Shown piece by piece: positions 6,418 through 63,739 of a stretch of DNA of 64,000 nt. A program made the position numbers and the translations under genes. Position 1 is the first letter of the stretch, and every line of letters begins with the position of its first letter. The stretch comes from Octopus vulgaris (lineage: Eukaryota): positions 72,850,001 through 72,914,000 of the forward strand of contig OX597820.1 in NCBI GenBank assembly GCA_951406725.2. The letters are read 5' to 3'. The notes beneath the pieces were generated by a model, which was given only the letters and a program-made list of their open reading frames with translations, ran no database searches and was not told where the DNA came from.

Positions 6418-6479
<62 letters not shown>

Positions 6480-6688
6480 CTATTATTATTTAATTGAACG
6501 CCATACATCCATTTCCAAGTACGTTTACATACATACATACATACATACATATAAACAGACAATCGTACAAAAGGTTTATGAACCCAAAATTTAGAAGCTA
6601 TCATTTCTAGCCTTATCAGCTTCAGGTTTCAACTTTCCAAAATAAAATTATTTCACGTTTTATCGAAGTTTCTAATTTTTTATGACGT

Positions 6689-6745
<57 letters not shown>

Positions 6746-7079
6746 TAGAGTTCATTTCTTTCAGCTATTTCATCTTCCTATATGTGGAAAGTCGCTCAAA
6801 CTTACTTAAAATGGAGTGGGTTACACCAGAGTAACCCATAAATGTGAAACTAAAAAAAAATAATCCATTTGTTTTCTCTACTCGTTTCTTTCTGTAGAAA
6901 AGTGCAGGCTCGAAACGTCAAAGACTTCTTCCATTTTTCCCCGAGCGTCAAACTAATACAGCGTATTTTTGTTCCCTCACCTCTGTCTTTGCATTTTCAA
7001 TTTTTTCTTTTGTACTTTATCGCATAATTTGAACCATCTCTCCTTCTCCCCCTCTCTCTATATATACACACACATCATA

Positions 7080-7971
7080 TCTATAATACATTAAAAGTCA
7101 TGTTGAATCTTGCTTGCTTAATTACTTGCAATGTTACTCAGCCAAACTGGAAAATACTATGATTTAAGTGTACCCTGATATGTAAATACGAACGGAATGA
7201 AGCAAATTTCGCGTAAAATGGATAAGTAGTTGTGAAAATATTAAGGGTTTTCGGGGTATAAATACCCAAACGGTGCATAATAGGAAAAGTCTCCGAAATT
7301 AACTTAATCCTGAAAGGGAAGTAACCCTTACTTTTCGATTAGACGGTACGATTTGTTTCTATTTTTACAGTAAATGTTTCTATTTTCGCTTTTGTTAAAT
7401 ACGATATTTTAATCATTTATGTATGTATGTATGTATGATTTATGAAGGCTGTTTGTACAAAAAGTATTTGTATTTTAGCATTCTTTAAACAGACAATATT
7501 CTAACATTTTTAAAAATTATTTTCAAGTGAATACCATTACAATAATTTATTTTGGCATATTTAAAATATCTTAAAGCGAAAATTACTTAAAAAATATGGT
7601 AAATATTTCGTAAAAGACCCGTTTGTAACCTCTGTGTGAAATAATTTTTTCCTTAGGTTTTCTCCGAGTGCATCAATGTATCTCACTACCAAAGATTTGG
7701 CTGTCATTTCTAGCACACCCTGCTACTACGTAACAGCCATTTGCGATGAAATACCCGAAATAGTTGTTACGTGGTAGCATAGCGTGCAAGAAATAGCAGC
7801 CAAATCTTTCCTTTTCTGGGGAAAGGAGCCGCTTACGCGTGATTTCGATGACATATTCGTTGAAAGCATGCAAAATAACCTGGAAAAGGAAAAAAAACAC
7901 CTACGAAACAAAACTACATTGCTGGGAAATTCAGACTTGCCCGCTGACCCAACGGGTCACGGGTAGTCTAG
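7080..7971 (+). mobile_element. Non-autonomous Helitron
   Basis: 3' GC-rich hairpin cccg(c)tgaccc-aac-gggtcacggg (7940-7963) followed by CTAG (7968-7971) then T; candidate 5' A|TCTATAATACATTAAAA at 7080. The 5' end is less certain than the 3' end. Confidence 0.6.
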
Positions 7972-8812: not shown

Positions 8813-8851
8813 CACACACACACATACACACACACACATATCTTAGTAAAA

Positions 8852-9247
8852 ACCTTTCTTATATAGGCACAAGGCCTGATATTTTGAGAGGGGGATAGTC
8901 GATCACTTCGACCCCAGTACTTGACTCCTACTTAATTTATCGACCCCGAAAAGATTAAAGGGCAAAGCCGACCACGGCGGAGTTTGAACTCAGAACGTAG
9001 CGACGGGTGAAATACCTATTTTTTTACTACCCACAAGGAGCTAAACACAGAGAGGACAAACAAGGACAGATAAACGAATTAAGTCGATTATATCGACCCT
9101 AGTGCGTAACTGGTACTTAATTTATCGACCCCGAAAGTATGAAAAGCAAAATCGATCTCGGCGGAATTTGAACTCAGAACGCAGCAACAGACGAAATACC
9201 GCAAAGCATTTCGCCCAGCGTGCTAACGTTTCTGCCAGCTCGCCGCT
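8852..9247 (-). mobile_element. SINE family 2 tandem dimer
   Basis: Reverse complement gives head gcggcgagctggcagaaacgttagcacg...gagttcaaattccgccgag, central tcggggtcgataaattaagtaccag; the inner unit ends in the Tx1-like tail joined at 9015/9016. Confidence 0.85.
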
Positions 9248-9721
9248 AAGCATTTAATCCAGCGTGATAATGATTCTGCCAGCTCACCCCCTCAAATACC
9301 TTAGAAATAACGAACGGGAAAAAAGTATTCAACACAAGTAGGAGAGTATAACCAAGTTATTCAACAACAGCCTTGCGTCATAAATCTTGAGTTTTCGCAA
9401 ATCTACAATTGTTAGACGATAAAACAAGACTGTAACAAATGTAAATATAACATGATGAATGAACACATGTTTCCCATTGACTAAACGGGTTTCGCATTAA
9501 AACACATGAAATCTTGCGTGATTCAGCCAAGAATATTTCTAAGTGTTGGAGCAGTGAAGATACCTCACAGATTACGATCAATTTGACGCAAATTATATAT
9601 ATATGCATATGTAACCTTACGTAGCAGAATACAAATATGGCAAATTTAACCATATCTTTGTAGATTGAAATAAGGATAACAGCCATAAGTAATTTTCAAA
9701 CCTTATTGGGTTCCCATTAGA

Positions 9722-15280: not shown

Positions 15281-15548
15281 GACAAAAGAGTTTAAGGCTT
15301 AGTGGGGACGGGATATTGGTAAAACCTTGAGGTGCCGCAATGGCAAGATGACTATAAGAACGACCTGGTTTGGGTTGATATGGCTATTTTTAAAACGAGA
15401 AGGTAGAATGTGAGGGCGGATATAGCGTCATTGTAGCGTGTCGTGCGATCGTATGGAAGCTGTTTTCATTAGCTTAACTGGCGAACGTCTGCATCGAACA
15501 TAAACCACAAAACAAACAAACATAAAACTCTATGTAGGGTAAATAGAA

Positions 15549-16051
<503 letters not shown>

Positions 16052-16470
16052 GGTACACCAGAGTACGTGTCCCATTAACAACTTCGAATAACATACCCAC
16101 AGTCCTTCTGAACTAAACAAACACACTTATCCAGATACTGCTGCTCGTAATCTGACACACAAATACGCACGCACACGCACACACACACACAAAGCAAATA
16201 GGAATCACAGAACACGAGACCAGAAGGAATTACAGCACTCAACAACACCAAAATTTCGTTTGACGAGGTCCTCAACATGCTAAAATTTGCAGCTATATCT
16301 CCCTCAAATCATACGCTGCAGTCTTAAACATAAAAAGGACATATTGGTCAACATCGTTTGTTGCTTGAAAATAAGATGAGATGTGTTGCTATAATGCCGG
16401 GAGGGTCATTATGCCAATAATAAATGCAGACGCACTGGTTCTGTTTCACTTCTTTATTTTTTATTTGTCT

Positions 16471-16504
16471 GGCTTAGGAGTGGCTGTGTGGTAAGTAGCT
16501 TGCT
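16471..16504 (+). mobile_element. SINE family 1 5' stub (A box) up to the insertion site
   Basis: ggcttaggagtggctgtgtggtaagtagcttgct matches the heads at 53172 (+) and 63444 (-); the SINE resumes at 26921. Confidence 0.92.
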
Positions 16505-17986
16505 AACGCGCATGCGTCGAGTTGTTTACTGTGTCAAGTTTTGACTAGGCGGACAGAATCCTTTGAGCTGCTCGCCAGCGGTTTGTTGGCGAGTGGAAAA
16601 TAATGTATTCGGACCTTAGCGAGTACGAGCTGTCCACATCTGAGGAGGAGCTCGTTAAGGCGGTGAACAGGATGGACCAACATTTGGAGAAAATGAAGAG
16701 TTTTGCTGACGCGGCGGGAGTGAAGAGAAAGGAAGTGGACCTGACTGAACTGAAGGAGCTGTATAAGATGACACAGAAGGTGGGAAGTGACGTAAAGTTA
16801 CTACCCCCGAAAACGGTCATGGTGAATATGGAAAGGAAAACCATCACCTACAAGGTGCACTCAGTGGAGAGTAGGAGAGTGGAGCAGATGAATATGGAAA
16901 AAATAGAAAAAGCTCTCAAGGGGCTTTCGAACGAAGTAACATACATAGCAAACGGAAGCGGATATGGGACGGTGGTTGTCCAGTTTAAAACAGAGGAGGA
17001 GGCGAGGAGGCTGGCAAGTGCAACCGTAAAAGCTGAGGAACTGGTGCTTCTACCCTCTTATCTTGGAAGAAAAAATTCTAAGGTGAGGGTAGAAGGAATT
17101 CCACCTGACATAAAGGTGGCTTGGGTTGCGGCAGCCGTCCTCGTTGGAAGTGAGGAGGTGACTGTCCTCCAAGCCACAGAGACAGAGGAAAGAAGTTACA
17201 AAGGAAAACTACTGGAAATGACCATACAAGCGGAGGCGAAGGAGCTGGAAAATTTGGCGGAAACGTTGTCAGTGGGAGAAATAGTACTGAGAGTATGGGT
17301 AGAAGGCAGAACCCCGCGGTGCTTTAAATGTGGCCAAAAAGGCCACATTAGAGCACACTGCCCCCTACAGAAGAAAAAGAGGAAAAAATAGATGAACCAG
17401 TTGCGGAGACAAAGAAGAAAAAAGAGGACGAAGACAAAGACGGACGAAAGGAGGTAGAATGGATAGTAGCAGAGAGCTGAAGTAAGAAGAGGAAGAAAAG
17501 AAAGAACACTGAGTGTGAAATTGTACCCCAGTCCAACTCCATCCCACCCAAGACCACTCAGACCCACCCGCCCCATAAAGACACCAGACCCACCCACTCC
17601 CTTTCCCCACAAGAAAAAAAAGAAAAAGAAAAACGAGCAGACACCACAGAATTCAGAAAACCCCTCCCCCGGTGAAAAAGGTTGCGAAAGAAAGTTGTCT
17701 TTAAGCGATAGCGAGAATGGAAAAAGGAGGACTAGACCAGAGATTAGAGAAGAATTCAGACTCAAAGGCAGCGAGTGGTGTTGCTCAGAGTGGGGTGAGT
17801 AGCACACTCGTCATATTTCATACTTTATTTTCAGATATCATGCATGTTATCATAAACTTAATTTATTTTCTCACGTTCATTTTCATGTCACTCACAGTAT
17901 CATTTTATTTTTAATTGTTATATGTCTCCACATGTTTTTGTAGTGTCCCCTCTATGTAATGCCTTTATGGCAAAATAGTTGAAATA
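16505..17986 (+). mobile_element. ORF1-only Tx1-related non-autonomous retroelement, lineage A, copy 1 (~1.5 kb)
   Basis: Bounded by AAGTAGCTTGCT at 16493-16504 and 17987-17998; one ORF1, no EN/RT; 3' hairpin plus AATAAA. Confidence 0.88.
16603..17391 (+). CDS. L1/Tx1-type ORF1 protein (RRM-like region plus CCHC zinc knuckle); probably continues to ~17802 across frameshifts
   Basis: CFKCGQKGHIRAHC = CX2CX4HX4C; GYGTVVVQF, LLPSYLGR and VEGRTP align with ORF1 of the autonomous element at 21872. Confidence 0.85.
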   Translation: MYSDLSEYELSTSEEELVKAVNRMDQHLEKMKSFADAAGVKRKEVDLTELKELYKMTQKVGSDVKLLPPKTVMVNMERKTITYKVHSVESRRVEQMNMEKIEKALKGLSNEVTYIANGSGYGTVVVQFKTEEEARRLASATVKAEELVLLPSYLGRKNSKVRVEGIPPDIKVAWVAAAVLVGSEEVTVLQATETEERSYKGKLLEMTIQAEAKELENLAETLSVGEIVLRVWVEGRTPRCFKCGQKGHIRAHCPLQKKKRKK

Positions 17987-17998
17987 AAGTAGCTTGCT

Positions 17999-19955
17999 AA
18001 CTGCGCATGTGCGAGTCAGTGCTGTGTTTGCTACTGAAGCAGTGAAGATGTGCTTTTGAAGCCGTCTTGAATTGAAACTTTGGAAGCCCCATGTAAGGTA
18101 AGATTCTGTTTTCTGGGTCCAGTGGGAGTTTTTGTTGAGAATTATTTTTTACATGCAGGAAGTCCTACTGGATTCAGAATTCTGATTCTGCCGACATGTG
18201 GCAGATATATTTTTCTCGCTGAGAAAATTTTTGGGGGCGTATCCGTCTTCGAATTGTGAAAATTGTATTGTGCTGTGAAGAACTACCAATTTTACACCAA
18301 TTTATGTGGAAGTTGTGCGATCCTGGTTCGATTTAGGCCGGGAGTACCAAATGGCCAAAAGGATTTTGCTGTGTTTTTGACTTTCTTTTTAACTTTATTT
18401 GACTTTCTTTTCAACTTTATTTGACTCTCTCCGTTTTTTCATTGTGACATTCTTCGGATTTCCTTTTCTTCTCGTTTTTTAGTTTTATTCTAAATACATT
18501 TATTTAAAAAAAAACAAAAAAAACATGGCAACAAAAGAAACCACCGCTTTAGAATGGGAGGTCGTCCCACCCAAGCAGTGGATTGAAAGTCTTGAGAAGA
18601 GGACGGTGGTCCTACGAACCTATTCTAGGTCGCGTGGAGCCATTGCCCTCTTCGACAGGAATACTATAGAGAAAGAGTTGGGGGAATACCTGCCAACTAT
18701 AAAATTTATTTCTCGGGGGACTAAATTTGCAACGGTCTGGTTGCTGTTTGGTACCCCCGAGGAAGCTAGCAGATTTGCTAGCGAGCCACTGGAGGGAGAG
18801 GAAATTTTGTTCCTCCCCTCGTATTGTGGAAGAAAAGTGAAAAGAGCCTGGGTGTGTGGGCTGCCCCCGGGCACGGAGGCGGAATGGATCGAGAAGACCA
18901 TCCGGCGAGGCCTGGGGGATAGCGGACCCAGACTGCTGAGTGTGAAGGTGGCTCCCGCGGTCGCCTGGCAGGGGTCGAGGGCAACTTTGACCCTCTGGAC
19001 ACCGGTAGCCGTGGGGGAAATGAAATTCCCGGACTTCCTGAGAATGGCTGGGCACAGGTACCCGGTGATACTCGAGGGTCGCCCCCCCAAGTGTCACCTG
19101 TGCCTGAAGCCCGGACATATCAGGAAGAATTGTCCCAGGGGCCGTGGTGGTGCCCCGGAGCAGAGAGGGGAAAAGGCGCCCGCCGCCCCCTCATTGGAGG
19201 GGAGACGATGGAAGTCGTGGAGGAGGTTGCCTCCACGAAAAGAAGAGAAAGGCGAGCAACAATGGTTGCCCGCCAAAGAACGCTCAGGGGGCGAAGGGGG
19301 ATAGCAATCCCCCGTGTCTGGTGACGGAGTCCCCTGGGTCAGCAGTCTCCCCCAAAAGAAGGAGGAGAAAAAGGAGAGGTCGGACGGAGCCGCGGGTGGG
19401 ATGTGTGCCACCCGCGGACAAGGCTCCGCCGGTAGGAAGTGTGCCACCGACGGAGCAGTGTGAGGTCCCTCCCTGTGAAGAGGAGATGCTTCTCCTCCTT
19501 TACCACAAGGGAGAGGAGGTTGAAAGATTCTTGAATGGCTTGGGTGACCGAGAGCGTAAGGACACGGTCGGCTCAAGGAGTCCGTTATGGCCTCCGCAGG
19601 TAGCTGCGGAAAAAGTAACAGAAGATACTTTTTCAAGGGTCGCAGAGACCTTTGAAAAGAAAGACTTTACCTTTCTCCTTGCAGGCCCCGACTTGTCGTC
19701 GCAGAGTTGTCTGCAGGCGGCAAGACAATTTGCTTCGGGGACCTGACGAGAAGAATTGTTGAACATTTTTATGTAATTTGAATCATTGTTTATTAAATGT
19801 ATTTATTGAAACATTGTTTTAGAGAAGCGAAAGTCGGCGGGCGCTTTCGACTTCTCCCATCACCATCTTCATCCACCACCATCATCCATTAATGTCCTTG
19901 TCCAGCCCGTAGCTACTACTCTGTGTGCTGCCCTAGTGGCAAATTATATAAAATA
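17999..19955 (+). mobile_element. ORF1-only Tx1-related non-autonomous retroelement, lineage B (~2.0 kb)
   Basis: Between target motifs 17987-17998 and 19956-19968; one ORF1, no EN/RT; 3' tgcc-ctagt-ggca plus AATAAA. Confidence 0.86.
18525..19746 (+). CDS. Lineage B ORF1 protein (zinc knuckle), frameshifted in the low-complexity linker
   Basis: EKRTVV, FATVWLLF, FLPSYCGR, LEGRPPKCHLCLKPGHIRKNC in ORF 18525-19304; an overlapping frame runs to the stop at 19746. Confidence 0.78.
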
Positions 19956-19968
19956 AAGTAGCTTTGCT

Positions 19969-21465
19969 AACGCGCATGCGTCGAGTTGTTTACTGTGTCA
20001 AGTTTTGACTAGGCGGACAGAATCCTTTGAGCTGCTCGCCAGCGGTTTGTTGGCGAGTGGAAAATAATGTATTCGGACCTTAGCGAGTACGAGCTGTCCA
20101 CATCTGAGGAGGAGCTCGTTAAGGCGGTGAACAGGATGGACCAACATTTGGAGAAAATGAAGAGTTTTGCTGACGCGGCGGGAGTGAAGAGAAAGGAAGT
20201 GGACCTGACTGAACTGAAGGAGCTGTATAAGATGACACAGAAGGTGGGAAGTGACGTAAAGTTACTACCCCCGAAAACGGTCATGGTGAATATGGAAAGA
20301 AAAACTATCACCTACAAGGTGCACTCAGTGGAGAGTTGGAGAGTGGAGCAGATGAATATGGAAAAATAGAAAAAGCTCTCAAGGGGCTTTCGAACGAAGT
20401 AACATACATAGCAAACGGAAGCGGATATGGGACGGTGGTTGTCCAGTTTAAAACAGAGGAGGAGGCGAGAAGGCTGGCAAGTGCAACCGTAAAAGCTGAG
20501 GAACTGGTGCTTCTACCCTCTTATCTTGGAAGAAAAATTCTAAGGTGAGGGTAGAAGGAATTCCACCTGACATAAAGGTGGCTTGGGTTGCGGCAGCCGT
20601 CCTCGTTGGAAGTGAGGAGGTGACTGTCCTCCAAGCCACAGAGACAGAGGAAAGAAGTTACAAAGGAAAACTACTGGAAATGACCATACAAGCGGAGGCG
20701 AAGGAGCTGGAAAATTTGGCGGAAACGGTGTCAGTGGGAGAAATAGTACTGAGAGTATGGGTAGAAGGCAGAACCCCGCGGTGCTTTAAATGTGGCCAAA
20801 AAGGCCACATTAGAGCACACTGCCCCCTACAGAAGAAAAAGAGCACACTGCCCCCTACAGAAGAAAAAGAGGAAAAAATAGATGAACCAGTTGCGGAGAC
20901 AAAGAAGAAAAAAGAGGACGAAGACAAAGACGGACGAAAGGAGGAAGAATGGATAGTAGCAGAAGTAAGAAGAGGAAGAAAAGAAAGAACACTGAGTGTG
21001 AAATGGTACCCCAGTCCAACTCCATCCCACCCAAGACCACTCAGACCCACCCGCCCCATACAGACACCAGACCCACCCACTCCCTTTCCCCACAAGAAAA
21101 AAAGAAAAAGAAAAAAGAGCAGACACCACAGAATTCAGAAAACCCCTCCCCCGGTGAAAAAGGTTGCGAAAGAAAGTTGTCTTTAAGTGATAGCGAGAAT
21201 GGAAAAAGAAGGACTAGACCAGAGATTAGAGAAGAATTCAGACTCAAAGGCAGCGAGTGGTGTTGCTCAGAGTGGGGTGAGTAGCACACTCGTCATATTT
21301 CATACTTTATTTTCAGATATCATGCATGTTATAAACTTAATTTATTTTCTCACGTTCATTTTCATGTCACTCACAGTACCATTTTATTTTTAATTGTTAT
21401 ATGTCCCCACATGTTTTTGTAGTGTCCCCTCTATGTAATGCCTTTATGGCAAAATAGTTGAAATA
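19969..21465 (+). mobile_element. ORF1-only element, lineage A, copy 2
   Basis: Near-identical to 16505-17986 with the same 5' and 3' ends; flanked by aagtagctttgct and aagtagttttgct. Confidence 0.9.
20067..21284 (+). pseudogene. Lineage A ORF1 copy 2, split by single-base homopolymer deletions
   Basis: Track ORFs 20067-20369, 20336-20548, 20545-21186 and 20949-21284 join into the same protein; the first two breaks are A6-to-A5 changes relative to copy 1. Confidence 0.8.
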
Positions 21466-21871
21466 AAGTAGTTTTGCTAACCTCACTGACAGAAGAGTGA
21501 CTTTGCTTACCGTACTACGGTTTGGACGCGTTTTCTTCCCGGTAAGAGTTTTGCTGTGTTGTTAATTGTTGAATTCCTACTACTGAAAATTTGCCTTTAA
21601 ACGTTGCTGAACTGTCTTGTTCTCCGGTTTTACCGGGAAATAATTGAATAATTTCTTACCGTTGAACTGTTAGCCATTGTGGCTTTTTATTTACGTGACT
21701 ATATATAGTCCTGCCAGACTATTTTCGTGCCCCTCCCCCGAATGGGGGTGGGAATTGGAATTTTTGAACTGCTTTTTTGAACTACTTTGGAAGAAAAACT
21801 TTCTATAGGTTTCCCAGTTTTGTGGGAAACCAATATTCGTAATTTTTGTGTTGTCTAATTTCAACAGAATA

Positions 21872-23273
21872 ATGTCTGTTGAAATTATTCACGAAAGTAG
21901 TGCTCTTGAGGAGAGCAATGTTAAAAAATTTTCTGAGGTAGCCGCAGTGGCTACCGAGAACATCGATATCGATGTCAATCAGCTCGTCGAGCTATTTAAA
22001 AGAATGCAAGAGGAGGGTGGTGATGTTAAAATATCACCCTCCGCCAGTATCGTGGAGACCGAGAAGCGGACCGTAGTGTTTAAAACTTTCTGTCCACAAA
22101 GCAGAAGGTTCAAACACTTTGAAAAAAGCACCATCGAGAAATGCCTGTCCCCAATTTGGAAGGACATCGTGTACGTCGCCAGGGGACGGGCATATGGCAC
22201 TGTGGATGTCCGCTTCTCGGGGGAAGAAATGGCCCGCGGGCATTCTGTAAACCCCCTAAAAACCAAGGAGGTGGTACTTTTTCCAAGCTATAGGGGACGC
22301 AGGACGTCCCGGGTCAGGATTGTAGAAGCCCCGCCGGAAGTAGATCCGGTAGAGGTAGTGGCCGCCCTATTATATAAATGGGCGGACAAAATAAAAATAC
22401 TAGAAGTAACATGCTCTACCCCTCGATTTTGGCTCGGGCGTAACATTAATATATTAATTCAAGGAACAGCGGAGGACCTACAGCTCCTTCCTGAGAGGGT
22501 GCTCGTGGGCGAGAACGTAGCCCTCAGGGTACAGGTCGAAGGCCGAAAACCCACCTGTTACGCCTGCGGCAAAAAGGGCCACATTCGTGTAGACTGTCCA
22601 GACAAGCAAAAGAAACCGCAGACACCAGGCCCCTCAGATAATAAAAAAGTCCCTACCCTTGCAAACACACCTACCCCTACAAAAACAAAAAATCCCACTC
22701 CTGCTGTTACGGTGCCAACCCCAAAACAGACTGAAGAAAAAACCCAGCCCTCGCACTCACAAACCCCTACACTATTAAAACCTCCCACCCCCTAAAAACT
22801 GCGGCGCCTACCGAACAAACTATTGCTACCCCAGACGATACCATGGAGGTATCAGAGGGGGATTTACACCAGTTCGTAAAAGAATTCGTGCAGCATCCCC
22901 GTCCACATCCCCTACAAAAAATAATAAAAACAAAGACACACCACAGACACGGAAAAAAAAATCCCGCTCAACTGGCCCAGAAAAAGAAGACAAAAAAGAA
23001 AATGAACTCATATTAATTGAATTCGACACACAAGACAAATACATAAACGATATTGTGGTTCAGCATCAGTCAGCAAGACTGTACAACAAATACAAAGATC
23101 GAAATAGACACGCGTGGATTGCGGAAACAACGTTCAAACAATTAAAAGACAGACACCCAAACGCCATCCGGCATGTCGCGAACTTGCCGGACTATCTGAA
23201 GAAAGAGGAGAAAGAAGGGGCCCACAAACGTGTGGTGAGGTCGGCCCCCACCTCTCCAACGAAATGTAAGTAG
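21872..23273 (+). CDS. Tx1-like ORF1 (RRM-like, CCHC knuckle, Pro/Thr/Lys-rich tail), two apparent -1 homopolymer frameshifts
   Basis: CYACGKKGHIRVDC; adding one C (~22790) and one G (~22860) extends the frame to the stop at 23273, just before the ORF2 ATG. Confidence 0.8.
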
Positions 23274-23290
23274 AACTTTTACTTTTTGTA

Positions 23291-26200
23291 ATGGCTTCGA
23301 TTAACCTTGGTTGTTTAAATGTGCGTGGTCTGAGTTCGAAGTGGAAGCAGGCTTGTTTCCTCGACGACCTCAGATCACATGATATACATGTGATGGTTGC
23401 TACAGAGACCAAGCTGGACAGCCTACAAACCTTCTCGCCTCTCCTGAATGGCTACGAGAAAATCATGTCTCCTGGCCAGACCGGAGGGCGAGGGGGCGTA
23501 GTGGTACTGATCCGTAAAGACTTGGCTCTACAGACAAGTACAGTCTATGTAGACCCAGAAGGTGGGCTGGTCGTCCTTGATGTGACATACAGCAGTAAGT
23601 CCTTCAGGTTGATCGGACTCTATGCACCTTGTGCTAGAAGTTTCCAAACTGATTTTTATCGGCGCCTAGAGGGCTTTCTCGTGACGTCGAAGACTTTAGT
23701 GATATTAGGGGACTTTAATGCTATCGTTGACGTACACATCGATAGCGTTGGCTCGATCTATAGGAAAGTGAACTCACGTCTCGTGGATCTGCTTAAGCGG
23801 TTTCAGCTAGCAGATCGTTACAGACTTGACCATCCGAACGTCCCAGAGTGGACCTGGATGAGTGGCGACGGAAGGTTCAAGTCTTATCTAGACAGGATAG
23901 TGATAAGAACTAGAGATAAGTCTAGTTTTAGTTGTCCACAGCTCGTCCAGGTGCCCTATACTGACCATAGAATGGTCACGTGTAGACTGGACATAGATAG
24001 CACACTTAAGATAGGAACCGGCTACTGGAAGCTGAACAAGTCTATTTTGACACGCGAGCATACCGTAGCCGGATTAAGGTGTTAGTGCAGAGGGCGTTAA
24101 CCGGAGCCGTGGTTAATAACCGGTGGTGGTTCACCCTCAAAAGAGCCATTCGATTCGAGTCCATTAGATTTAGTAAACAACTAAGACTAGATAGGGCTAG
24201 AATAGAAGGGCAACTAGTTAAGAACTTAGAGGAGGCGTTGAGGTTGGGCTCTGCATCTCACATTTTAGCGGCGAGAACGGCATTAGACCGTCACCTCAAA
24301 ACCAAACATGAGGGATGTAGAGTCCGGGCTAAAGTACGAGCATTGGGCCGTGAGGGAATTAATGTTGCCGGATGGGCCCGTACGATAGGAACACAGCGTG
24401 GAAACGATGCCACAATTGGGACTCTTGTTGATGAAAACGGATGCACGATCAAGAAGCGGGACGAGATGTGTGAGGCACTTCACAAGCACTTCGCCGAGTT
24501 GTTCGGGAGGTGCGGGACGCTGGATCATGGTGAGCCCCTTAGGGACTTCCTGTCTGGTGGCCCGCGCCTCTCGACACGAGAGGCTGAGTGCTGTGAACGG
24601 CCAATCACATCCGAAGAAGTAATCGAGGTGTTGGGCAAGTGCCCCGGGGAGAAGTCGCCGGGTCTCGAGGGTCTGCCCTATGAATTTTATAGAAGTATGC
24701 CAGACTTGTTCGGACACCTGCTGGCTAGCGTCTACGCCAACTGGCAACAGAATGGGAGAATTCCCAAGTCTGCAAGCCGGGGGGCGGTGACGTTGATCAG
24801 GAAGGACCCGAACAAGGGGGACGAGATAGGGAACTTCAGGCCCATAACTCTGTTAAACACAGAGTTAAAGATTCTGGCCAAGGTGCTAGCAAAAAGGTTG
24901 GCGCGGGTCGTGGACAAACTTGTCGGGGAAGCGCAAACGTGTGCTATCCCCGGCAGAACGATCCACGACAATCTCCACCTTATACGCTACTCCTTAGAGA
25001 GGGTGGGGAAGCTTTCTGGCGCAGGGGGAGCACTGGTACATTTAGACCAGTCCAAAGCATTTGATAGGGTCGACCATCGGTACCTGGCGGCGGTCCTCGG
25101 AGAGGCTGGCCTAGGCCCGACCTTTCGAGGTTGGATCGCTGCTTTGTATAGCGACATCGAGTCTGTAGTCAAGGTGAACGGTTCCTTTTCGAAGCCGTTC
25201 AGGATCGAGCGTTCAGTTCGTCAAGGGTGTCCCCTGTCCTCGCTCCTATACGTATTGGCTCTTGAGCCTTTGCTGCGGAAGTTGGAGGCACTAGGGGGCG
25301 CGCCGCATGATCTATGGTGTGGAAGAGGAGCTACGGCGTATGCGGATGACACCTCCATCATCGTGGCAGACGAAGGCCAGCTTCCAGTGGTGGAAGAGGC
25401 CATCAAAAGCTACGAGGCGGTGGCAGGAGCAAAGGTTAACAAGGTCAAGTCGGTCGGTTTGCAACTCGGCACCTGGAGGGGCAAGCCGATGCCGTCCAAT
25501 AACGTCGTAGGGCGTTGGACGGAAGGTCCTGTTAAGCTGCTCGGAGTCTGGTTCGGGCCAGACCTCCAGATTGAGAAAAATTGGAGTGAGGTGGCCAACA
25601 AGGTGACCGCTCTAACCCAGATCTGGTCTGGGCGGGCGTTATCCCTGCTAGGGAAGGCGGAGGTGGTGCAGATGTTTATAGCATCAGTAATCACCTACCG
25701 CCTGACCGTGGTGCCTTGCCCCGATTTGTGGATGAACAAGTTGGAGAGAATCCTTTTCCGATTTTTGTGGAAAGGAGGAAAGCCACTTGTAAAGCGCTCT
25801 GTCTGCTGCCAGAAACCGCTAAAGGGTGGGCTAGGGATGCCTTGGCTGAGGATGCGAAAACTCGCGTTAAGGTTGAGGCACCTCTGGCTTTACCTGGATG
25901 GAGAGCAGGTGTGGTCGCCGCACGTCCGGTTCTACCTTCCCCAGTTAACATCCCTAACGGACATCGGTGCATGGATCAAACGGAGACCTAAACTGAGTGA
26001 ATGGCATTTGGAGTGCCGTCAGGCGCTCCAGCTACTATCTCGGGTGGGCAACGCCGGCAACAGGAGTTCCACCACGGATTTCTATAGCGGGTTAGTGGAG
26101 ATTAAGTCCGAAGACGCCTTGGGGGAGACCCTGGGCTACGATGAAAATCAGTTGGTCAACCTGTTCCGAAGGACGTTCGGGCCGGGGTATCTGGATAATT

Positions 26201-26692
26201 ACCAGAAATCCCTGGCCTGGCAGTGTTTCCGTGCGGCTTTACCTGTTCGCGACAAGCTGTCAAGGCACGGTAGTGCCGTCTCGCCGACATGCCCGCGATG
26301 TGAGCAGGATAGGGAGACCGTCTTGCACGCATTCGTGGAGTGTCCGGAGTTATCGGGACTGATAGCTTTTGTTGAACAACTGTTGTCAGTGATGGGAAGA
26401 GTACAGCTATCAGCTGAGTCTATCATCGAGATTGTGCCGCCCCCTTTCCTTAACAGGGAAAGAAAGGCTTGTTTTTTTCTGTGTAGTAGCCATACTGAAA
26501 GAAACAGTATGGAAGACGGGTACGAAAGGTATAGTGACAGGCACCTTTGTCTCCGGCCAGGGGTTGATTAACTTTTTTAGTTACCACCTCAGTAGCAAAA
26601 TCAGGCTGGAGAAGAGGTGTCTGTCACGAGATATGCTTGTGAAAAGATGGAAGCCTGTGGCATACAAGATGGGTATGTTTGGCACCAGGTAA
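23291..26692 (+). CDS. ORF2: apurinic-like endonuclease, reverse transcriptase and C-terminal zinc finger; two single-base frameshifts (~24058, ~26475)
   Basis: APE motifs LNVRGL, TETK, LYAP, GDFN, LDRI, TDH, WKLN; RT motifs KSPG, FRPITLLN, LDQSKAFDRVDH, VRQGCPLS, YADD; zinc finger CPRC..ETVLHAFVEC. Confidence 0.93.
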
Positions 26693-26920
26693 GTGTGACC
26701 GGATCAGAAAGTAAAGGTTCTACCCGGATGGCTGGGTGTCCGTCCTTCGACATGATCATTAATATTTTTAAACATTGCCTTCGTAAAATTCATTGTTTAT
26801 AATCTTATCCGTAATTTCATTCGAAAATTGTAACTGTGTTAAGCTACTTCACCCTTTATATTTGTCTGTCCTTGTTTGTCCCCTCTTTGTAAATGCCTAA
26901 ATGGCAAATTATATGAAATA

Positions 26921-27070
26921 AAGTAGCTTGCTTATGAACCACATGGTTCCGGGTTCAGTTCCACTGCATGGCACCTTGGGCAAGTGTCTCCTACTTATAG
27001 CCTCGAGACGACCAAAGCCTTGTGAGTGAATTTGGTAGACGGAAACTGAAAGAAGCCCGTCGTACATATG

Positions 27071-27123
<53 letters not shown>

Positions 27124-27314
27124 CTGTGTTTGTCCCCCCAACATCGCTTGACAACCGATGCTGGTGTCTTTACGTCCCCGTAACTTAGCGGTTCAGCAAA
27201 AGAGACCGGTAGAATAAGTACTAGGCTTATTAAGAATAAGTCCCGGGGTCGATTTGCTCGACTAAAGGCGGTGATCCAGCATGGCCGCAGTCAAATGACT
27301 GAAACAACTAGAAG
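26921..27314 (+). mobile_element. SINE family 1 remainder (B box, body, internal (TA)n, 3' part)
   Basis: aagtagcttgcttatgaaccacatggttccgggttcagttccactgcatggcaccttgggcaagtg...gcagtcaaatgactgaaaca. Confidence 0.92.
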
Positions 27315-28225
27315 TGTATAAGGGTAATTAATTTTAAACGACTGTTTGATTTATCGCACGGTAAATCAGTCAATCAGCGAAACCTGTCAAGATAAACCTG
27401 AAGTTAGGGAAGGAATGTCAATGATGCGATCATGACTGGCGACGAACAGACTTTGGACAAACATGTGAGGAGCACAGTTTGTATCCCAGAAAAAACTTCA
27501 AACTTCAACTAAACTAGAAGGAAAAATCGCCACAAAACTCCCATATACATATACAACGACGCCAAACACTATTACAACAGAATATTAAAATTCAAACATA
27601 AAAATCATGTACGCAGTGAAGTATCTGCAAATATCTGCTGCACCAATAACCCCAGCCTGAAACATTGTGCTGGGTTACACACCACCACCAACAAATACAG
27701 AAGAACAGCATCCGTCACGCGCTGGTCGGTTCCGCGCTGTCTGTTTCAGATATAAGAATCCACCCGAATCTGCATGTGTACTGAAATAAAGTGGAGTAAG
27801 ACTAAACCCCCGACGATTTCATCACTGCGTCTCGGAGTGTGAAGTGTGGTTCTTAACTAGGTTAGATTATGGTGTAACTGGAACAATAGATACACCATGG
27901 GATTCATAGCAACAATAACAACATCGTACACCAGTATACCTACATACACATGTGTGTTTGTGTGGAGTAGCGCGCGCGCGTGCAAATATATATATATGTA
28001 TACACACACACACACAGACGCACGCACACGCAATGCAAGTGCGCATGTTTTGCTGTTAATCTGATGAAATGCTTCTCCAATGTAATCGGTTGCTAATATT
28101 GTGTAACTTTTCACATGAAATTATTTACTTGCTACGGTGTTAGAAACGGAATGGTACTGAAGTAACTAATAATAAAGCGATATTGAATTCATTCTTCGTA
28201 TTCTTAAATGTATCATACGTGTATG

Positions 28226-28725: not shown

Positions 28726-28912
28726 AGGCAGCGAAATGGCAGAACAGTTTGCACGCCGTACAGAATACTTAGCAGTATTTCGTCCGTCTTTACGTTCTGA
28801 GTTCAAATTCCATTGAGGTTGACTTTCCCTTTCGTCCTTTCGAGATCGATAAAATAAATATCTGTTGAGCATTGAGATTGATGCAATTGACTACACACTT
28901 CCCCTAAAATTT
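28726..28912 (+). mobile_element. SINE family 2 monomer, degenerate
   Basis: aggcagcgaaatggcagaacag...gtatttcgtccgtctttacgttctgagttcaaattcc. Confidence 0.75.
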
Positions 28913-28924
28913 CGTTCATATCTA

Positions 28925-29541
28925 AAAGGGGGTTAAAGATACAGTGGACAAACAAGGACAGACAAAGGGATCAAATCGATTACATCGACCCCAGTGTGTA
29001 ACTGATACTTAATTTATCGAACCAGAAAGGATGAAAGACAAAGTCGACCCCGGCGGAATTTGAACTCAGAACATAAAGACAGACGAAATACGGCTACGCA
29101 TTTCGCCCGGCGTGCTAACGTTTCTTATTTCTTTATTGCCCACAAGGGCCTAAACATAGAGGGGACAAACAAGAAAAGACAAAGGGATCAAATCGATTAC
29201 ATCGACCCCAGTGTGTAACTAGTACTTAATTTATCGACACAGAAAGGATGAAAGGCAAAGTCGACCTCGGCGGAATTTGAACTCAGAACATAGCGGCAGA
29301 CGAAATACCTATTTCTTTACTACCTACAAGGGGCTAAACACAGTGGAAACAAACAAGGACAGACAAACGGATTAAGTCGATTACATCGACCCTAGTCCGT
29401 AACTGGCACTTATTTAATCGACCCCGAAAGGATGAAAGGCAAAGTCGACCTCGGCAGAATTTGAAATCAGAACGTAGCGACAGACGAAATACGGCTACGC
29501 ATTTCGTCCGGCGTGCTAACGTTACTGCCAGCTCGCTGCCT
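28925..29541 (-). mobile_element. SINE family 2 tandem trimer
   Basis: Three collinear units with junctions at 29123/29124 and 29308/29309. Confidence 0.85.
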
Positions 29542-30808
29542 TAGAACTCCTAATAATATTGAATCATAAAAATACAATATAATTTTTTAAACATCGAATG
29601 GCCAGGTGGGTCCACCAGAATATAAAACAGGAGTCCAAGGAGTCCATAGGTAAAAAAAAAAAAATGCTTGAGAAACATTTATTTACGAGAAACTGTTCAA
29701 ACAAGAAATCGAAACTGGAACTATGGCATAGAAACAGCTGATTGAAAGCCTATTTCTTCTCTGCGGCACATGCTTCAATTCCGTATTCGAGAAAATAACT
29801 TCCAGTTCATCTGAACGGCAAAACCAATTAATTACCAATATTTTGGAGATGCACAGCCAATCGTTTAAACCTGAAGCATAAAGTACAGTAGTATAACAAC
29901 ATAAATATTATTATTTCCTCTGTCAGAACAAAACAAATCAAAATAAATTGACAGGAAATTATCAAGCTTCGCTATTTGTTCCCGACTTGATTGTTTCACA
30001 CATCTAGTTTGATTTTAATTAAATTGAATTCAAGTATTTATTGGTTTGTAAAAGAAATGATTGGTTATGAAATTAATTAGCTGATCTGTTCTTTTTAAGT
30101 AATAACAGATTTATAATCTAATTGCTAGCTTTAATATATTTCTGTAGTCATATCTAAAATCTCTGAATTAATTGTTACCAGATGACTGTCAAGAATAATT
30201 ATCGAGTGATATCTAATTTAAATTAGTGTCCTTCCAACTATTACGGCTGCTGAATAATATAATCTATAATTTTAGTTGCATTTAAAAATTAGCTTCGAAT
30301 AACTGACATCCATAACTGAAGAACCAGCTCATAGCTGAGAAATGGCCATCGTTTAAATTTTTAACACAGCACGAATTGCCAATGATTACGTTCACAGTAA
30401 AACCGCCGAATGGAAACCGGATGTCAGCTTCGATTCTCGATTAATGCCTCTTCACTTCATTTTTGTTTCTAACACATTTGTAGAATGCATGAATGTCACA
30501 GCATTATATTTCATGTCCTGTGTAAGCCTAGGGCTTTAACCTATCAATACTGTTCAGTGTAGGGACTGACAGGTGAAAGATTAGACCCAACGTTTCCGAG
30601 CGACTAAAAGAGGGTTCAAGGTATGATTTGTACCCTTATCTCGCAAAGCCTTCACCAGTAAAAACTACTGAAAACTGATTCACGGATTGGAGGGTTGTCG
30701 TGTGAGTGGTGCAAAGGGGCCATCCACCAGGAATGGTAGGGAATCACCAACAAACCGGGGATGCAACGATGCGCTGTTACAACACATGCACCCCATACTA
30801 GTATTATT

Positions 30809-31227: not shown

Positions 31228-32249
31228 ATTTTGGCACAATGCCAGCAATTTCAGGGAAGTGGGTAATTCTATTACATCGACCCCAGTACCTGACTGGTAC
31301 TTATTTCATCGACCCCGAAAGGATGAAAGGCAAAGTCGACCCCTGCAGAATTTGAACTCAGAACGTAATGCCGCTAAACATTTGCTCGGTGGGCTAACGA
31401 TTCTCTTATCTACTCCAGACACAAGGCCCGAAATTTGGGGGGAGGAGGCCAGTCAATTAGATCGACTCCAGTACGCAACTGGTACTTAATTTATCGACCT
31501 CGAAAGGATGAAAGGCAAAGTTGAAAGCGGTGGAATATGAACTCAGAACGTAAAGACAGACGAAATACCGCTAAGCATTTGGCCAGGAGTGCTAACGTTT
31601 CTTATTTCTTTATTGCCCACAAGGGGCTAAACATAGAGGGGACAAACAAGGACAGACAAAGGGATTAAGTCGATTACATCGACCCCAATGCGTATCTGGT
31701 ACTTAATTTATCGACCCCGAAAGGATGAAACGCAAAGTCGACCTCGGTGGAATTTGAACTCAGAACGTAACGGCAGACGAAATACGGCTACGCATTTCGC
31801 CCGGCGTGCTAACGGTTCTACCAGCTCACCGCCTTACAACTCCTAATGATATTATTTTCTACTCTAAGCACAAGGCCCGAATTTTTTGGGAAGAGGGCCA
31901 GTCGATTAGATCGACCCAGTATGCAACTGGTACTTAATTTATCGACCCCGAATGGATGAAAGGCAAAGTCGACCTCGGCGGAATTTGAGCTCAGAACGTA
32001 GCGGCAGACGAAATACCTATTTCTTTACTACCCACAAGGGGCTAAACACAGAGAGGACAAACAAGGACAGATAAACGGATTAAGTCGATTATATCGCCCC
32101 CAGTGCGTAACTGGTACTTATTTAATCGACCCCGAAAGGATGAAAGGCAAAGTCAACCTCGGCGGAATTTGAACTCAGATCGTTAAGGCAGGCGAAATAC
32201 CGCTCGGCATTTCGCCCGGCGTGCTAACGTTTCTGCCGGCTCGCCGCCT
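31228..32249 (-). mobile_element. SINE family 2 cluster: partial monomer plus two dimers (~31415-31833, ~31855-32249)
   Basis: Repeated tcgaccccgaaaggatgaaaggcaaagtcgacctcggcggaatttgaactcagaacg core; Tx1-like tails at 31601-31670 and 32017-32085. Confidence 0.88.
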
Positions 32250-32349
32250 TACCCCATTACAATATTAGAGGAAATCTGTGATAATGAACTGACAGAATCG
32301 TAAGCATTCCAGAAAAAAAAAATTGCTTAGCAGATTTTCTTCCAGTTTA

Positions 32350-33498: not shown

Positions 33499-34479
33499 AG
33501 AGTGTCGTCTTACATATATCTAGGGTATGTCCGAAAATAAGATTAAATGGCCATGGCTTGAACACCTTTTAGTATAAATCTACTCATGTATTAATTCAAT
33601 GACACTTAACATATTCTGATAGTTAAATACAATAATAGTTTCAAATTCTGGCACAAGGCCAGCAATTTCAGGGGTTGGTGTAAGTCGATTACATCGACCC
33701 CATTGCTCAACTGGTACTTATTTTATCGACTTCAAAAGGATGAAAGGCAAAGTCGACCTTAGTGGGATTCGAACTCAGAACTTAAGGACGGACGAAATGA
33801 CGCAAAACATTTTACCTGGCAGGCCACCTTAAATACAATAATAAAACGATAACATGCCCAACACATTTATGATCAATTCAACAGATGAATTTATTGATAT
33901 ACTTAGAACAACCACACCTAAAAACATCATTGCTCCCTAAGATGTTAAGCAGTTAATCATTAATGTGCCAATAAACATCGTAATATATTCCATAGTCAAG
34001 CATGCATACCATCAACACGATGGGTGAAATGCTTAGCGGCATTTTTGCCACCCTTACGTTCTGAGTTCAAATTACGTCAAAGTCGACTTTGCCTTTCATC
34101 ATACCGGGTTCGATTAAATAAATATTGGGGTCGATGTAATCGACAGATCCCCTCCCCTCAAATTTCAGGCCTTGTGTTATTAACTGTTCAATGTTTGGTT
34201 TATTGAAGCAAATTTCTACTGCATCGTCTTCTACACTTCCGTGTTACTGGGGTATGTGCAGCATTGTGTGTTCTTTTCTGCTGTTGGGAGTGTGCGAACT
34301 CTTCCTGGTACTGTATTGTGTTGTGGTGCTGTCTTTTGTTGTGTTACTGCTTATATCGTGTTGAGTGTGTAATACCTTGATTTCTGGCTTGCTGGTGGAA
34401 GTTTATTCCACTGGGTAAACGGTGTATAGAGTGTATCTTGTATTTGTGGGTTGCTTTGTTTAGGTTGTATTACTGGATT

Positions 34480-35756
34480 GATAACGTCTCATATAGGATA
34501 TGGGCAATTCCTAGCAGGGCTATTTTTTAGACAGTGTGTAGTGTTGAGGGTCCAGGTATAGCTTCTACATTTTTATTCATATAATTTTTTATCATGCCCA
34601 ATGCTCCAGTTATTCTTTTCTCCTCTAGGCACAAGGCACGAAATTTTGGTGAAGGGGACCAGTCGATTAGATCGACTCCAGTACGCAACTGGTACTTAAT
34701 TTATCGACCCTGAAAAGATGAAAGCAAAATCGACCGCAGCGCAACAGCGCAATTTGAGCTAAGAACGTAAAGACAGACGAAATACCTATTTCTTTACTGC
34801 CCACAAGAGGCTACACACAGAGGGGACAAACAAGGACAGACAAACGGATTAAGTCGATTATATCGCCCCCAGTGCGTAACTGGTACTTATTTAATCGACC
34901 CCGAAAGGATGAAAGGCAAAGTCGACCTCGACGGAATTTGAACTCAGAACGTAGCGGCAGACGAAATACCTATTTCTTTACTTCCCACAAGGAGCTAAAT
35001 ATAGAGGGGACAAACAAGGACAGACATAGGTATTAAGTCGATTACATCGACCCCAGTGTGTAACTGGTACTTAATTTATCGACCCCGAAAGGATGAAAGG
35101 CAAAGTCGACCTCGGCGGAATTTGAACTCAGAACGTAACGACAGACGAAATACCGCTAAGCATTTCGCCCGGCGTGCTAACGTTACTGCTAGCTCGCCGC
35201 CTTAATGCTCCAGTTATTATTGGTATTGTTTTTACCTTCATGCCCTATATTTTGAATACTTCAATTTCGAGGTCTTTGTACTTCGACAATTTCTCCAATT
35301 CTGCATTGGCAATCTTTTGATCTGAAGAAACAGTAATGTCTACAGGTGATTTTTCCCCAATCACTGACTATCATGTGTGGACGATTAGCTTTTATGAACC
35401 TGCATATCCGAGATGATTGTGGCCTGATCGTTGTCTTGTATCTTGCTTGGCACATGCTTATACCACTTGCACTCAGTTTTGACGTTGTAATGTTGGCATA
35501 TTTTCCAGTGGATATAACTGTTTACTTTGTCGTGTCTGTATACATATTCAGGCTTGGCAAGGACTGGGCAGCCCGAGGTGATGTGGTCAACTGTCTCATT
35601 GTGCTGGTTGCACAATCTACATTTGGTGTTGAGGCCTGTTTTCATTATTTTATTTTTATAATTTTTTGTAGTCAGGCATTGGTCTTGTGCAGCGAGAATC
35701 AGTCCTTTCGTTTCGGCTTTTTGTCCAAAGCTTTTGAGCCATTGTTGGCTTTTACT
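34480..35756 (-). mobile_element. 5'-truncated R4/Dong-like non-LTR retrotransposon fragment (CCHC plus restriction-like endonuclease), interrupted by a SINE trimer
   Basis: AETKGLILAAQDQCL..CRLC..ETVDHITSGC..RHDKV..IHWKIC, then ANRP(H)MIV and KTIPIITGALGMIK across the SINE. Confidence 0.8.
34615..35203 (-). mobile_element. SINE family 2 tandem trimer with 15-bp TSD
   Basis: TSD aatgctccagttatt at 34600-34614 and 35204-35218; internal junctions at 34785/34786 and 34969/34970. Confidence 0.92.
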
Positions 35757-43027: not shown

Positions 43028-43069
<42 letters not shown>

Positions 43070-43076
<7 letters not shown>

Positions 43077-44517: not shown

Positions 44518-44536
44518 TACATATATATATATATAC

Positions 44537-44610
<74 letters not shown>

Positions 44611-44622
44611 ATACATATATAT

Positions 44623-44676
<54 letters not shown>

Positions 44677-44844
44677 GAATATATATAACTTAGAATAACT
44701 TAGAAAGGTTTTGGCCAGTATTGGCCCAGGCCATGTCTAACTTAATAGCACCACCTGGCGACGTCTTTCAGTTCAGGATTTGGGCACCAAGGCCCATTCG
44801 AGAAGAGAGTTATTGTTTGCAGAGACATATCCTGGTGTGGGTGG

Positions 44845-44915
<71 letters not shown>

Positions 44916-46817: not shown

Positions 46818-46822
46818 TATAT

Positions 46823-63294: not shown

Positions 63295-63444
63295 GACGGG
63301 ATTCTTTCAGTTTCCGTCCTCCAAATCCATTCACAAGGTCGGCCGGAGGCTATAGTAGAAGACACTTGCCCAAGCTGCCACGCAGTAGGACTGAACCCGG
63401 AACCATGTGGTTGGTAAGCAAGCTACTTACCACACAGCCACTCC
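62918..63444 (-). mobile_element. SINE family 1 full copy with an exact empty target site
   Basis: agcaagctactt at 63417-63428 is the reverse complement of AAGTAGCTTGCT. Confidence 0.9.
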
Positions 63445-63739
63445 AACGCCAATATATACGAAACTCGTATAACAGATTTTGCTTCGGCTAAATATTAAAA
63501 AAATTAATACACACACACTGCATATTGATGATTGTACATAAACACTAAACACACACGCATGTACACACACATATACAATGCTTATACGTGTGTATGCGCG
63601 CGCGTACGCCTATGTGTTCGTATTCTGAGTGTTTCGGCTAAATAGGAAAATTTTTATGTTCCCCTTTTTCGGGAAGAGCTTCGTTTGTTGGTGAACAGAC
63701 AACGGCGCTGGAGAGCATAAAGATTAAAGTTGTAGTTGA

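Follow-up and report, generated by a model that had tools for sequence, protein, structure and literature searches.

Stacked insertion of an L1/Tx1-type LINE and its ORF1-only partners at one nucleotide of a SINE head in Octopus vulgaris

Introduction

How do several distinct retroelements come to lie head to tail at one position inside another repeat? The question is raised by a stretch of 64,000 nucleotides of the Octopus vulgaris genome (GenBank assembly GCA_951406725.2, contig OX597820.1, positions 72,850,001 to 72,914,000 of the forward strand), which is referred to as a whole as the window. Within it, the head of a short interspersed element (SINE) is interrupted by a train of four retroelements, named E1 to E4 from 5' to 3', the last of which, a long interspersed element (LINE), is of L1/Tx1 type. 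A first-pass annotation of the window had proposed that a Tx1-clade family targets the SINE between its A and B boxes and that each insertion regenerates the target, so that trains of several families build up.

Tx1-clade LINEs that target other repeats are described in parts of PMC4494074, among them Tx1L in Tx1D (Xenopus), Keno in U2, Kibi/Koshi, and the crocodilian Tx1-Mar with SINEU in Mariner-N4. A recent O. vulgaris annotation lists 13 recently active L1-Tx1 families with 421 insertions, and the words 'target' and 'nested' do not occur in the main text of that paper (PMC13282606). In a paper on octopus LINEs, a search for the term 'Tx1' gives no occurrence (PMC9115989).

Results

A SINE split by four retroelements

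The SINE head (16471..16492, + strand) carries the A-box-like sequence TGGCTGTGTGG followed by T, and matches unbroken heads at 63451, 53176, and 49940. It ends at junction 1 (16493..16507, +), which consists of the duplicated target AAGTAGCTTGCT and an element-borne AAC. The SINE resumes at its original target site, AAGTAGCTTGCTTAT (26921..26935, +), identified by the motif and by SINE collinearity, and continues as the body (26936..27330, +) with the B-box-like GGTTCAGT, a central region, (TA)n, and a tail. This body is 80–85% identical to the other window copies over ~400 bp. Head and body together are collinear with the unbroken copies at 63451–62924, 53176–53584, and 49940–49523, which bears out the annotated split and resumption. 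An empty site with the exact motif lies on the minus strand at 63417–63428, within an unbroken SINE head (63417..63451), as had been noted.

All four units are on the plus strand. E1 (16508..17986, 1.5 kb) has a single open reading frame (ORF), an ORF1 at 16606–17391 encoding 261 amino acids with an RRM-like domain and a CCHC knuckle. It is followed by junction 2, AAGTAGCTTGCTAAC (17987..18001, +), whose start is overlapped by AATAAA and which has no poly(A) tail. E2 (18002..19955, 2.0 kb) is likewise ORF1-only, with ORF1 starting at 18526 and encoding 259 amino acids in this frame. Junction 3 (19956..19971, +) is a TTT variant, AAGTAGCTTTGCTAAC, and the same variant is tied to the locus in other trains. 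E3 (19972..21465, 1.5 kb) is a second copy of the E1 family; it has a 28-bp internal duplication, and its ORF1 is interrupted by a stop codon and by a frameshift. Junction 4 (21466..21481, +) reads AAGTAGTTTTGCTAAC. E4 (21482..26920) is a full-length L1/Tx1-type LINE with ORF1 from 21872 and ORF2 from about 23291, and ends in a 3' terminus shared among the families (26880..26920, +) that has a TGCC-N5-GGCA hairpin, an A/T-rich spacer, and AAATA. E1 and E3 are 96.4% identical in nucleotide sequence (14 substitutions), and the ORF1 amino acid identities are 26% for E1/E2, 36% for E1/E4, and 25% for E2/E4. The annotated picture of four same-strand units from three lineages is thus confirmed; what it overlooked is that three of the four are ORF1-only, non-autonomous elements and that the motif is in part an intrinsic 5' terminus.

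The motif AAGTAGCTTGCT occurs exactly at 16493, 17987, and 26921 on the plus strand and at 63417–63428 on the minus strand. Allowing at most one mismatch, the window has six matches as compared with 0.32 expected, and none of 100 shuffles reached six. At 19956 and 21466, the junction has a T-rich variant of the motif instead (one extra T; GTTTTGCT). The claim that the motif recurs at every internal junction is therefore exact for 17987, and for 19956 and 21466 it stands only if variants are tolerated.

Specificity of insertion across the genome

Genome-wide counts refer to the 2.8-Gb assembly of 227 contigs (C1, C5, C10, and so on are its contigs; L-numbers are sampled loci), and the target sequence was excluded from flank queries. 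We observed the site immediately after E4 3' ends in 30 of the top 30 (of 40, one being the window's own), followed by a SINE body in 27 and by another element in three. This tabulation of 3' flanks, suggested in the first-pass annotation, gives flanks that are not random. The site also precedes E4 5' ends in 30 of the top 30, with a SINE head in 28. The 3' ends of E1 type (30/30, at 80–100% identity, three being offset by indels) and of E2 type (30/30) are followed by the site as well. The filled junction AAATAAAGWAGCTTGCT has 1,658 exact occurrences genome-wide and a control has one, which together with the flank tables supports sequence-specific insertion between the SINE A and B boxes, as had been claimed. 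All of the 3' ends sampled show insertion with single-nucleotide specificity.

Some E4 3' ends share 100% identity over 180 bp and yet are followed by SINE bodies that belong to different subfamilies and have private changes. Among 25 E4 copies with both ends read, one is truncated and lacks an upstream SINE head and two have small target deletions. Two further loci (L166 and L182, at C1:15.96 and 39.26 Mb) hold 5'-truncated insertions of ~60–100 bp of 3' end at the same site between SINE head and body.

The SINE target

The SINE is cut at GGT|AAG, one base past the A-box-like motif. By the A-box and B-box consensus sequences, the two box-like motifs start 43 bp apart, which is tRNA spacing, and this makes a tRNA-derived head plausible. 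That part of the annotation holds to this extent; no tRNA was called by ARAGORN in the window or by Rfam in two SINE copies. The SINE presumably resembles octopus OR/CORE-type SINEs.

We counted 72,753 exact empty sites and 793 exact filled sites with SINE body, an occupancy of ~1.1%, and the SINE thus has no fewer than 72,000 copies. Each insertion splits the RNA polymerase III (Pol III) promoter of the SINE that is hit (~1% of copies). The young families favor the TAAC subfamily, which accounts for 53 of 79 E4 sites and 79 of 99 sites of a further family, F5, as compared with 28 of 78 empty AAGTAG sites (p 1e-4 and 5e-9, respectively, from hand counts). A preference of all families pooled for one SINE subfamily was considered and rejected. 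Filled sites resemble empty ones, the first 100 filled being 24 TAAC, 49 TTAC, 25 AAGAAG-TTCC, and 2 other, and the first 100 empty being 28 TAAC, 43 TTAC, 18 AAGAAG-TTCC, and 11 other (hand counts); preference is specific to families.

Target duplication and element-borne 5' ends

The duplicated target is ~15–16 bp in length rather than the 12 bp first annotated, and the last bases on its 5' side, CTAAC, are element-borne. In the 5'-truncated copy L155, the private variant of the target is present on both sides over 15–16 bp, indicating a true duplication. Other copies vary, with a 9–10-bp duplication in L159 and target deletions in L142 and L157. The original SINE site of the window reads TTAT, making the AAC of junction 1 foreign to its target. 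In full-length E4 copies within non-AAC targets, the 5' junction ends in TAAC in seven of seven (among 18 classified) and in the window copy. Because the 5' junction reads TAAC whatever the target reads, the last 3–7 bases on that side are brought by the element. The 5' end of the element thus rebuilds a TAAC-subfamily site. In other families the 5' end differs, being TTCC in older elements within AAGAAG-type SINEs and CTTAC in a group at four loci, and one 5' end has TAAC stacked on an older GGTTGCTTC. The first-pass annotation had also entertained that the motif is an intrinsic terminus; this is true of the last 3–7 bases of the 5' side only, and L155 shows real duplication.

It is very improbable that there is no targeting at all, and that the motif and SINE halves are instead the termini of a composite moved as a block, or an assembly artifact. 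The element-borne bases of the 5' junction fit this idea. So does the search of read contigs from four runs, in which none of the listed pieces bridges an internal window junction with 31 letters to either side of it; these contigs cover all 30 bins, and SINE heads show as loose ends before 26921. However, the idea is refuted by the flank tables, with identical E4 3' ends in SINE bodies of different subfamilies, and in L155 the duplicated sequence is the variant of its own target. The order of units differs among more than 20 loci, and the elements are present in 20 listed runs from 9 studies under four organism labels, none recorded as RNA.

A shared 3' end

A 4-bp hairpin, mostly TGCC-N5-GGCA, is present in 43 of 49 distinct 3' ends, as compared with a mean of 6.3 and a maximum of 14 in shuffles; the 49 were gathered by junction motif and are thus not a free sample. 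There is no poly(A) tail at any junction, and AATAAA overlaps the first bases of the target. About 30 bp of the E4 3' untranslated region (UTR; 26861–26890) are common to an abundant dispersed repeat with ~184-bp internal units, and one E4-type end (L167) lacks the stretch after the motif that is common to this repeat.

E4, the autonomous LINE

Pfam domains in E4 ORF2 are Exo_endo_phos (the apurinic/apyrimidinic endonuclease, APE), RVT_1 (the reverse transcriptase, RT, with YADD), and zf-RVT, and ORF1 has zf-CCHC. The window ORF2 is frameshifted twice, and contigs of runs show in-frame letters at both breaks. Unbroken natural copies occur as a 1133-amino acid ORF2 in L136 and a 467-amino acid ORF1 in L138. 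The best PDB match of ORF2 is human L1 ORF2p (E 1e-67, residues 6–870), with R2 at E 1e-20, L1 and R2 being the only LINE groups among the matches. The closest named RT relative is from Argonauta hians (64% identity over 82% of the RT region). By its domain order and an RT nearer to L1 than to R2, E4 is classified as an L1-group (L1/Tx1) non-LTR (long terminal repeat) retrotransposon. Membership in the Tx1 clade is likely. E4 has the Tx1-like traits of sequence-specific insertion in a multicopy sequence and of target duplication as from a staggered cut. Protein searches and Atlas and cluster look-ups with E4 returned no named Tx1 protein, and a search with the endonuclease region was empty. 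Metagenome relatives are mostly 23–34% identical, and ARAGORN, applied to 60 of their 80 loci, called no tRNA; they are too distant to inform on targets.

A frameshift of E4 ORF1 at the C-rich run at 22787–22856 is common to three of five other copies, while one reads through (467 amino acids) and one is broken elsewhere. Two presumed RNA runs have extra letters at this C-rich run. In most E1 and E2 copies, there is a frame switch after the CCHC knuckle. The 5' UTRs of E4 (21542–21867) and E2 (18098–18482) each have a strong splice-donor-like GTAAG and, immediately ahead of the ORF1 start codon, a pyrimidine tract with AG; that of E4 also has a CTAAT branch-like motif, and the short E1 UTR is without splice-like signals. 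From these signals, the 5' UTRs of E4 and E2 may possibly hold retained introns. No splice joint was seen among the 15 listed of 253 matches to contigs of the two presumed RNA runs.

ORF1-only families under selection

E1, E2, and E3 have complete 5' and 3' ends and ORF1 alone; ORF2 is found in E4 only, and a search for ORF2 in 52 short units gave no matches. The E2 ORF1 is 414–415 amino acids in length in two other copies. F5 is a further ORF1-only family, 2.25 kb in length and 68–69% identical to E2. The ratio of nonsynonymous to synonymous substitution rates (dN/dS) is 0.14–0.24 in all listed ORF1 comparisons. Within ORF1-only lineages, it is 0.19–0.23 for E1 as compared with older members of its lineage (0.19 with L038) and 0.14–0.24 for F5 as compared with unit 9 of the C10 train, on the premise that the common ancestors were already ORF1-only. 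The ORF1 of the ORF1-only families is under purifying selection. E1 and E4 are alike in only the last 44 bp (84%), the ORF1s of these families are 25–36% identical to that of E4, and no direct parent LINE was found.

The 5' starts of ORF1-only elements (16508–16517 and 18002–18013 in the window; F5 in L126–L129) carry GCGCATGCG-like palindromes, and E4 is without one. These palindromes presumably resemble the NRF1/EWG binding motif. The 5.9-kb second unit of L135 (C4:127.35 Mb) is a chimera that matches F5 over its first 2.15 kb (98.1%) and E4 from position 1689 on (98.4%), resulting either from an ORF1 swap or from a deletion within an F5–E4 train.

Trains and the bias toward occupied sites

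We mapped 22 further loci, picked for holding these families. All trains are interstitial, have SINE halves at both bounds, and consist of head-to-tail units in the same orientation. Examples are head-E2x7-E4-body, E2x6-F5, E1-E2-E4, E4x3, and E4-E2-old E4, and a nine-unit train reads head-X-E2x5-E1-E2-(F5-like)-body. A 5'-truncated, inverted E2 copy lies ~5 kb upstream of an eight-unit train (L121, ~5500–7230; C1:223.71–223.72 Mb).

The families differ in how often their 3' ends abut a resident element. These classes are defined by exact patterns, with listings sorted by hand, and miss degenerate junctions (including those at 21466 and 26921 in the window). The end abuts another element in 1 of the first 100 (of 183) F5-type ends, 4 of 83 E4-type ends (3 of 81 loci, one ambiguous row scored as SINE), 35 of 48 E2-type ends (18 of 31 loci), and 4 of 7 E1-type ends. 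The difference is significant for E2 and F5 (p 6e-13) and for E2 and E4 (p 6e-10). The per-site excess of E2-type ends over empty SINEs is ~60-fold with all filled junctions as denominator and 300-fold with E4 and F5 only. When the first 100 junctions on C1 are taken without regard to family, 14 are element-to-element, in 5 of about 86 sites.

The site is indeed regenerated with each insertion, but regeneration alone, as first proposed, is insufficient to explain the trains, because ~1.1% occupancy predicts ~1–2% double hits and almost no trains of four to nine units. E4 and F5 fit this expectation, and E1 and E2 do not. Families apparently using one endonuclease and one site thus differ ~15- to 60-fold in sitting at occupied sites.

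How trains grow

The best explanation, to which we assign a probability of about 0.72, is endonuclease-targeted insertion in which E1 and E2 re-target occupied sites successively, with contributions from dimer mobilization and local duplication. The occupancy bias of E2- and E1-type ends is a direct observation, and a sequential order is supported at several loci. Units within one train are polyphyletic; unit 1 of the C5 train, for example, has four differences from a C1 unit and 24–27 from its neighbors. Near-identical units on different contigs differ in junction variant, each matching its own train. By hand recount, the upstream junction is TTT in 15 of the 21 pairs whose downstream junction is TTT, and in 2 of the 22 whose downstream junction is TT (p 7e-5 from an earlier tally of 15/20 and 2/20, the pairs not being independent). 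Within the same trains, a position 8 bp upstream of the junction is polymorphic, and gene conversion is therefore disfavored. The 3'-most unit at C1:99.59 Mb is an old one (92.6%). The nearest copies of the window E1 and E3 are on other contigs, narrowly (9 and 11 differences as compared with 14 between them), and for 16 of 32 E2 units the closest relative lies at a different locus, seven of these units being in multi-E2 trains.

Two simpler rules were considered and rejected. Inheritance of the junction variant (TT, TTT, TTGT) from donor RNA would predict clustering on the E4 haplotype tree, which was not seen, although this tree is distorted by two deleted copies; E2 variants follow the locus. 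Strict growth at the 5' end as a rule would predict a gradient, and nearest-relative distance has no clean one with position.

Several observations weigh against successive re-targeting. The E2-type pattern also picks up sister families whose 5' ends differ. Distances among E2 units are smaller within trains than between them (mean 14.8 vs 27.5 differences), and some neighbors are near-identical (0–2 differences), indicating that local duplication has occurred. Joint movement of E2 and F5 is allowed in 10 of 15 pairwise comparisons, although the two are not congruent overall (Mantel r 0.10, p 0.33). In three of the four E1 cases, E2 comes next after E1, and these E2 units are all basal, as predicted for a mobile E1–E2 dimer. 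Unit 5 of the C10 train falls between two sister units, and growth thus also occurs at internal sites. TTT precedes E4 in 6 of 11 cases inside trains as compared with 6 of 40 head junctions, which plain re-targeting does not predict. Lastly, the enzyme and the RNA-end steps of the mechanism are ones that we infer from sequence.

Some of these points favor the main rival, which we nonetheless consider unlikely. It keeps the same targeting and has trains made in single events, through RT template jumps from one RNA's 5' end to the 3' end of the next or through read-through dimers (E2–F5, E1–E2, E2–E4) copied whole, such that E1 and E2 are passengers without a site preference of their own. The overlap of AATAAA with the junction makes read-through plausible, and the same unit pairs recur across loci. 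The age of E2 is about that of its partner, the compatible E2/F5 distances are as expected, and template jumps are invoked for the 5' extensions of SINEU in the relevant part of PMC4494074. However, the junction variant is tied to the locus and not to the unit haplotype, and the polymorphism 8 bp upstream is free within a train. The pair at C5:143.9 Mb is incongruent (p 1e-6 to 3e-3 in four of five comparisons), and old and young units are mixed in some trains.

The close kinship within trains, and identical or near-identical neighbors such as units 1/2 and 4/5 of C1a and units 3/5 and 4/6 of C5, are instead what would be left if one or two insertions had been followed by unequal crossover, or by tandem duplication, between the rebuilt sites. 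Such a process cannot place different families side by side and can be dismissed as the principal origin of mixed-family trains. The count of 18 of 31 is one of loci in which the 3'-most E2-type unit abuts another family, half of the E2 units are nearest to another locus, and the window E1 and E3 are not mutual nearest copies. As a general account of trains, duplication is improbable.

Other features of the window

Stretches of the ~184-bp-unit repeat are located at 8833–9316, 28909–29560, 31240–32268, 33657–35270, 39770–40865, and 58891–59141. Long tracts of (AAC)n/(ACC)n, (TACA)n, and (TA)n at 15469–16078, 2087–2800, and 42800–46950 give spurious long ORFs and Rfam microRNA matches.

Discussion

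The junctions place a bottom-strand nick at GGT|AAG, 3' of the A box, and the enzyme would be an E4-type ORF2 protein (ORF2p). ORF2p would then reverse-transcribe RNAs that end in the conserved TGCC-N5-GGCA hairpin and AAATA, which it may recognize. The absence of poly(A) would probably be due to RNA that runs past AATAAA into target sequence and pairs with the primer. The top strand is cut ~15–16 bp downstream, as one 5'-truncated copy shows. Full-length RNAs would begin with (TG)CTAAC and could pair with the overhang, which would account for the observed rewriting of the 5' junction to AAC, and a complete site would thereby be rebuilt on both sides of the insertion. The RNA is expected to start within TTGCTAAC and to end 10–25 nt past AATAAA.

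E1, E2, F5, and other ORF1-only families would borrow ORF2p in trans, while keeping their own selected ORF1. E4 and F5 would colonize empty SINEs. E2, and also E1 as judged from few copies, would insert mostly at sites fronting a resident, in separate events, with the local junction variant copied upstream. Because E4 and F5 show no such bias with what is presumably the same nuclease, a factor particular to E1 and E2 would be needed. The cause would most likely be the ORF1 protein (ORF1p) of E1 and E2, or else open chromatin at the promoter of a young resident. Conserved ORF1p is the best candidate by the precedent of HeT-A Gag and TRE5-A ORF1p. A bolder proposal, which we hold tentatively and think rather doubtful, is a three-tier hierarchy at one nucleotide, in which a SINE supplies the site, empty sites go to a LINE and to one ORF1-only family, and the ORF1p of other families redirects ORF2p to resident promoters. 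If true, ORF1p would choose the target on behalf of a sequence-specific endonuclease, arrays like those of HeT-A/TART would exist inside chromosomes, and element 5' ends would track successive SINE subfamilies (TTCC, TTAC, TAAC).

The system has partial counterparts elsewhere. HAL1 (half-L1) has a poly(A) tail; here, no junction has one, and ORF1 has a CCHC knuckle, which sets these elements apart from HAL1 proper. They are like HAL1 in being non-autonomous LINE derivatives that encode ORF1p alone; HAL1 is described from mammals, and the relevant portions of PMC5753468 mention neither a sequence-specific target nor trains. Here, several lineages with ORF1s 25% identical have one site and a 3' hairpin in common. 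As with Tx1-clade LINEs in the pertinent sections of PMC4494074, an APE-RT LINE lies in another interspersed repeat, with non-autonomous partners at the same target, often in tandem. However, the targets described there are DNA transposons, LTR elements, snRNA (small nuclear RNA) and 5S genes, satellites, and microsatellites, and the target here is a SINE head. Protein-coding ORF1-only partners, a site-rebuilding 5' end, and families favoring occupied sites also distinguish the octopus system from what those sections describe.

Drosophila HeT-A/TART/TAHRE likewise form same-orientation, head-to-tail arrays of Gag/ORF1-only elements and autonomous LINEs, and for HeT-A the conserved ORF1-only protein does the targeting, according to parts of PMC5537684. 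Unlike these, the octopus arrays are interstitial in SINEs, have target duplications, and have no telomere role, and targeting by ORF1p is a candidate here. In Dictyostelium, TRE5-A is an APE-RT element that also inserts near Pol III promoters, ~50 bp upstream of tRNA genes, and its ORF1p tethers to TFIIIB in vitro, as portions of PMC5006619 report. In that account, TRE5-A is position-specific, whereas the system here is sequence-specific and lies inside a split SINE promoter. In the literature covered, we found no SINE-targeted LINE and no such system; the search was of papers, and a note in Repbase or Dfam could exist. What is distinctive is the combination of single-nucleotide specificity across families, 5' ends matching SINE subfamilies, selected ORF1-only partners, and a bias toward occupied sites.

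These findings make SINE heads a further target of APE-type LINEs, with the target rebuilt through a built-in 5' end. They also bear on how repeats are annotated in cephalopod-type genomes, in which trains of this kind would be merged or mislabeled. As a young, multi-family system with natural unbroken copies of ORF1 and ORF2, it makes target choice dissectable, and it makes testable why half-LINEs keep ORF1 and whether ORF1p steers integration.

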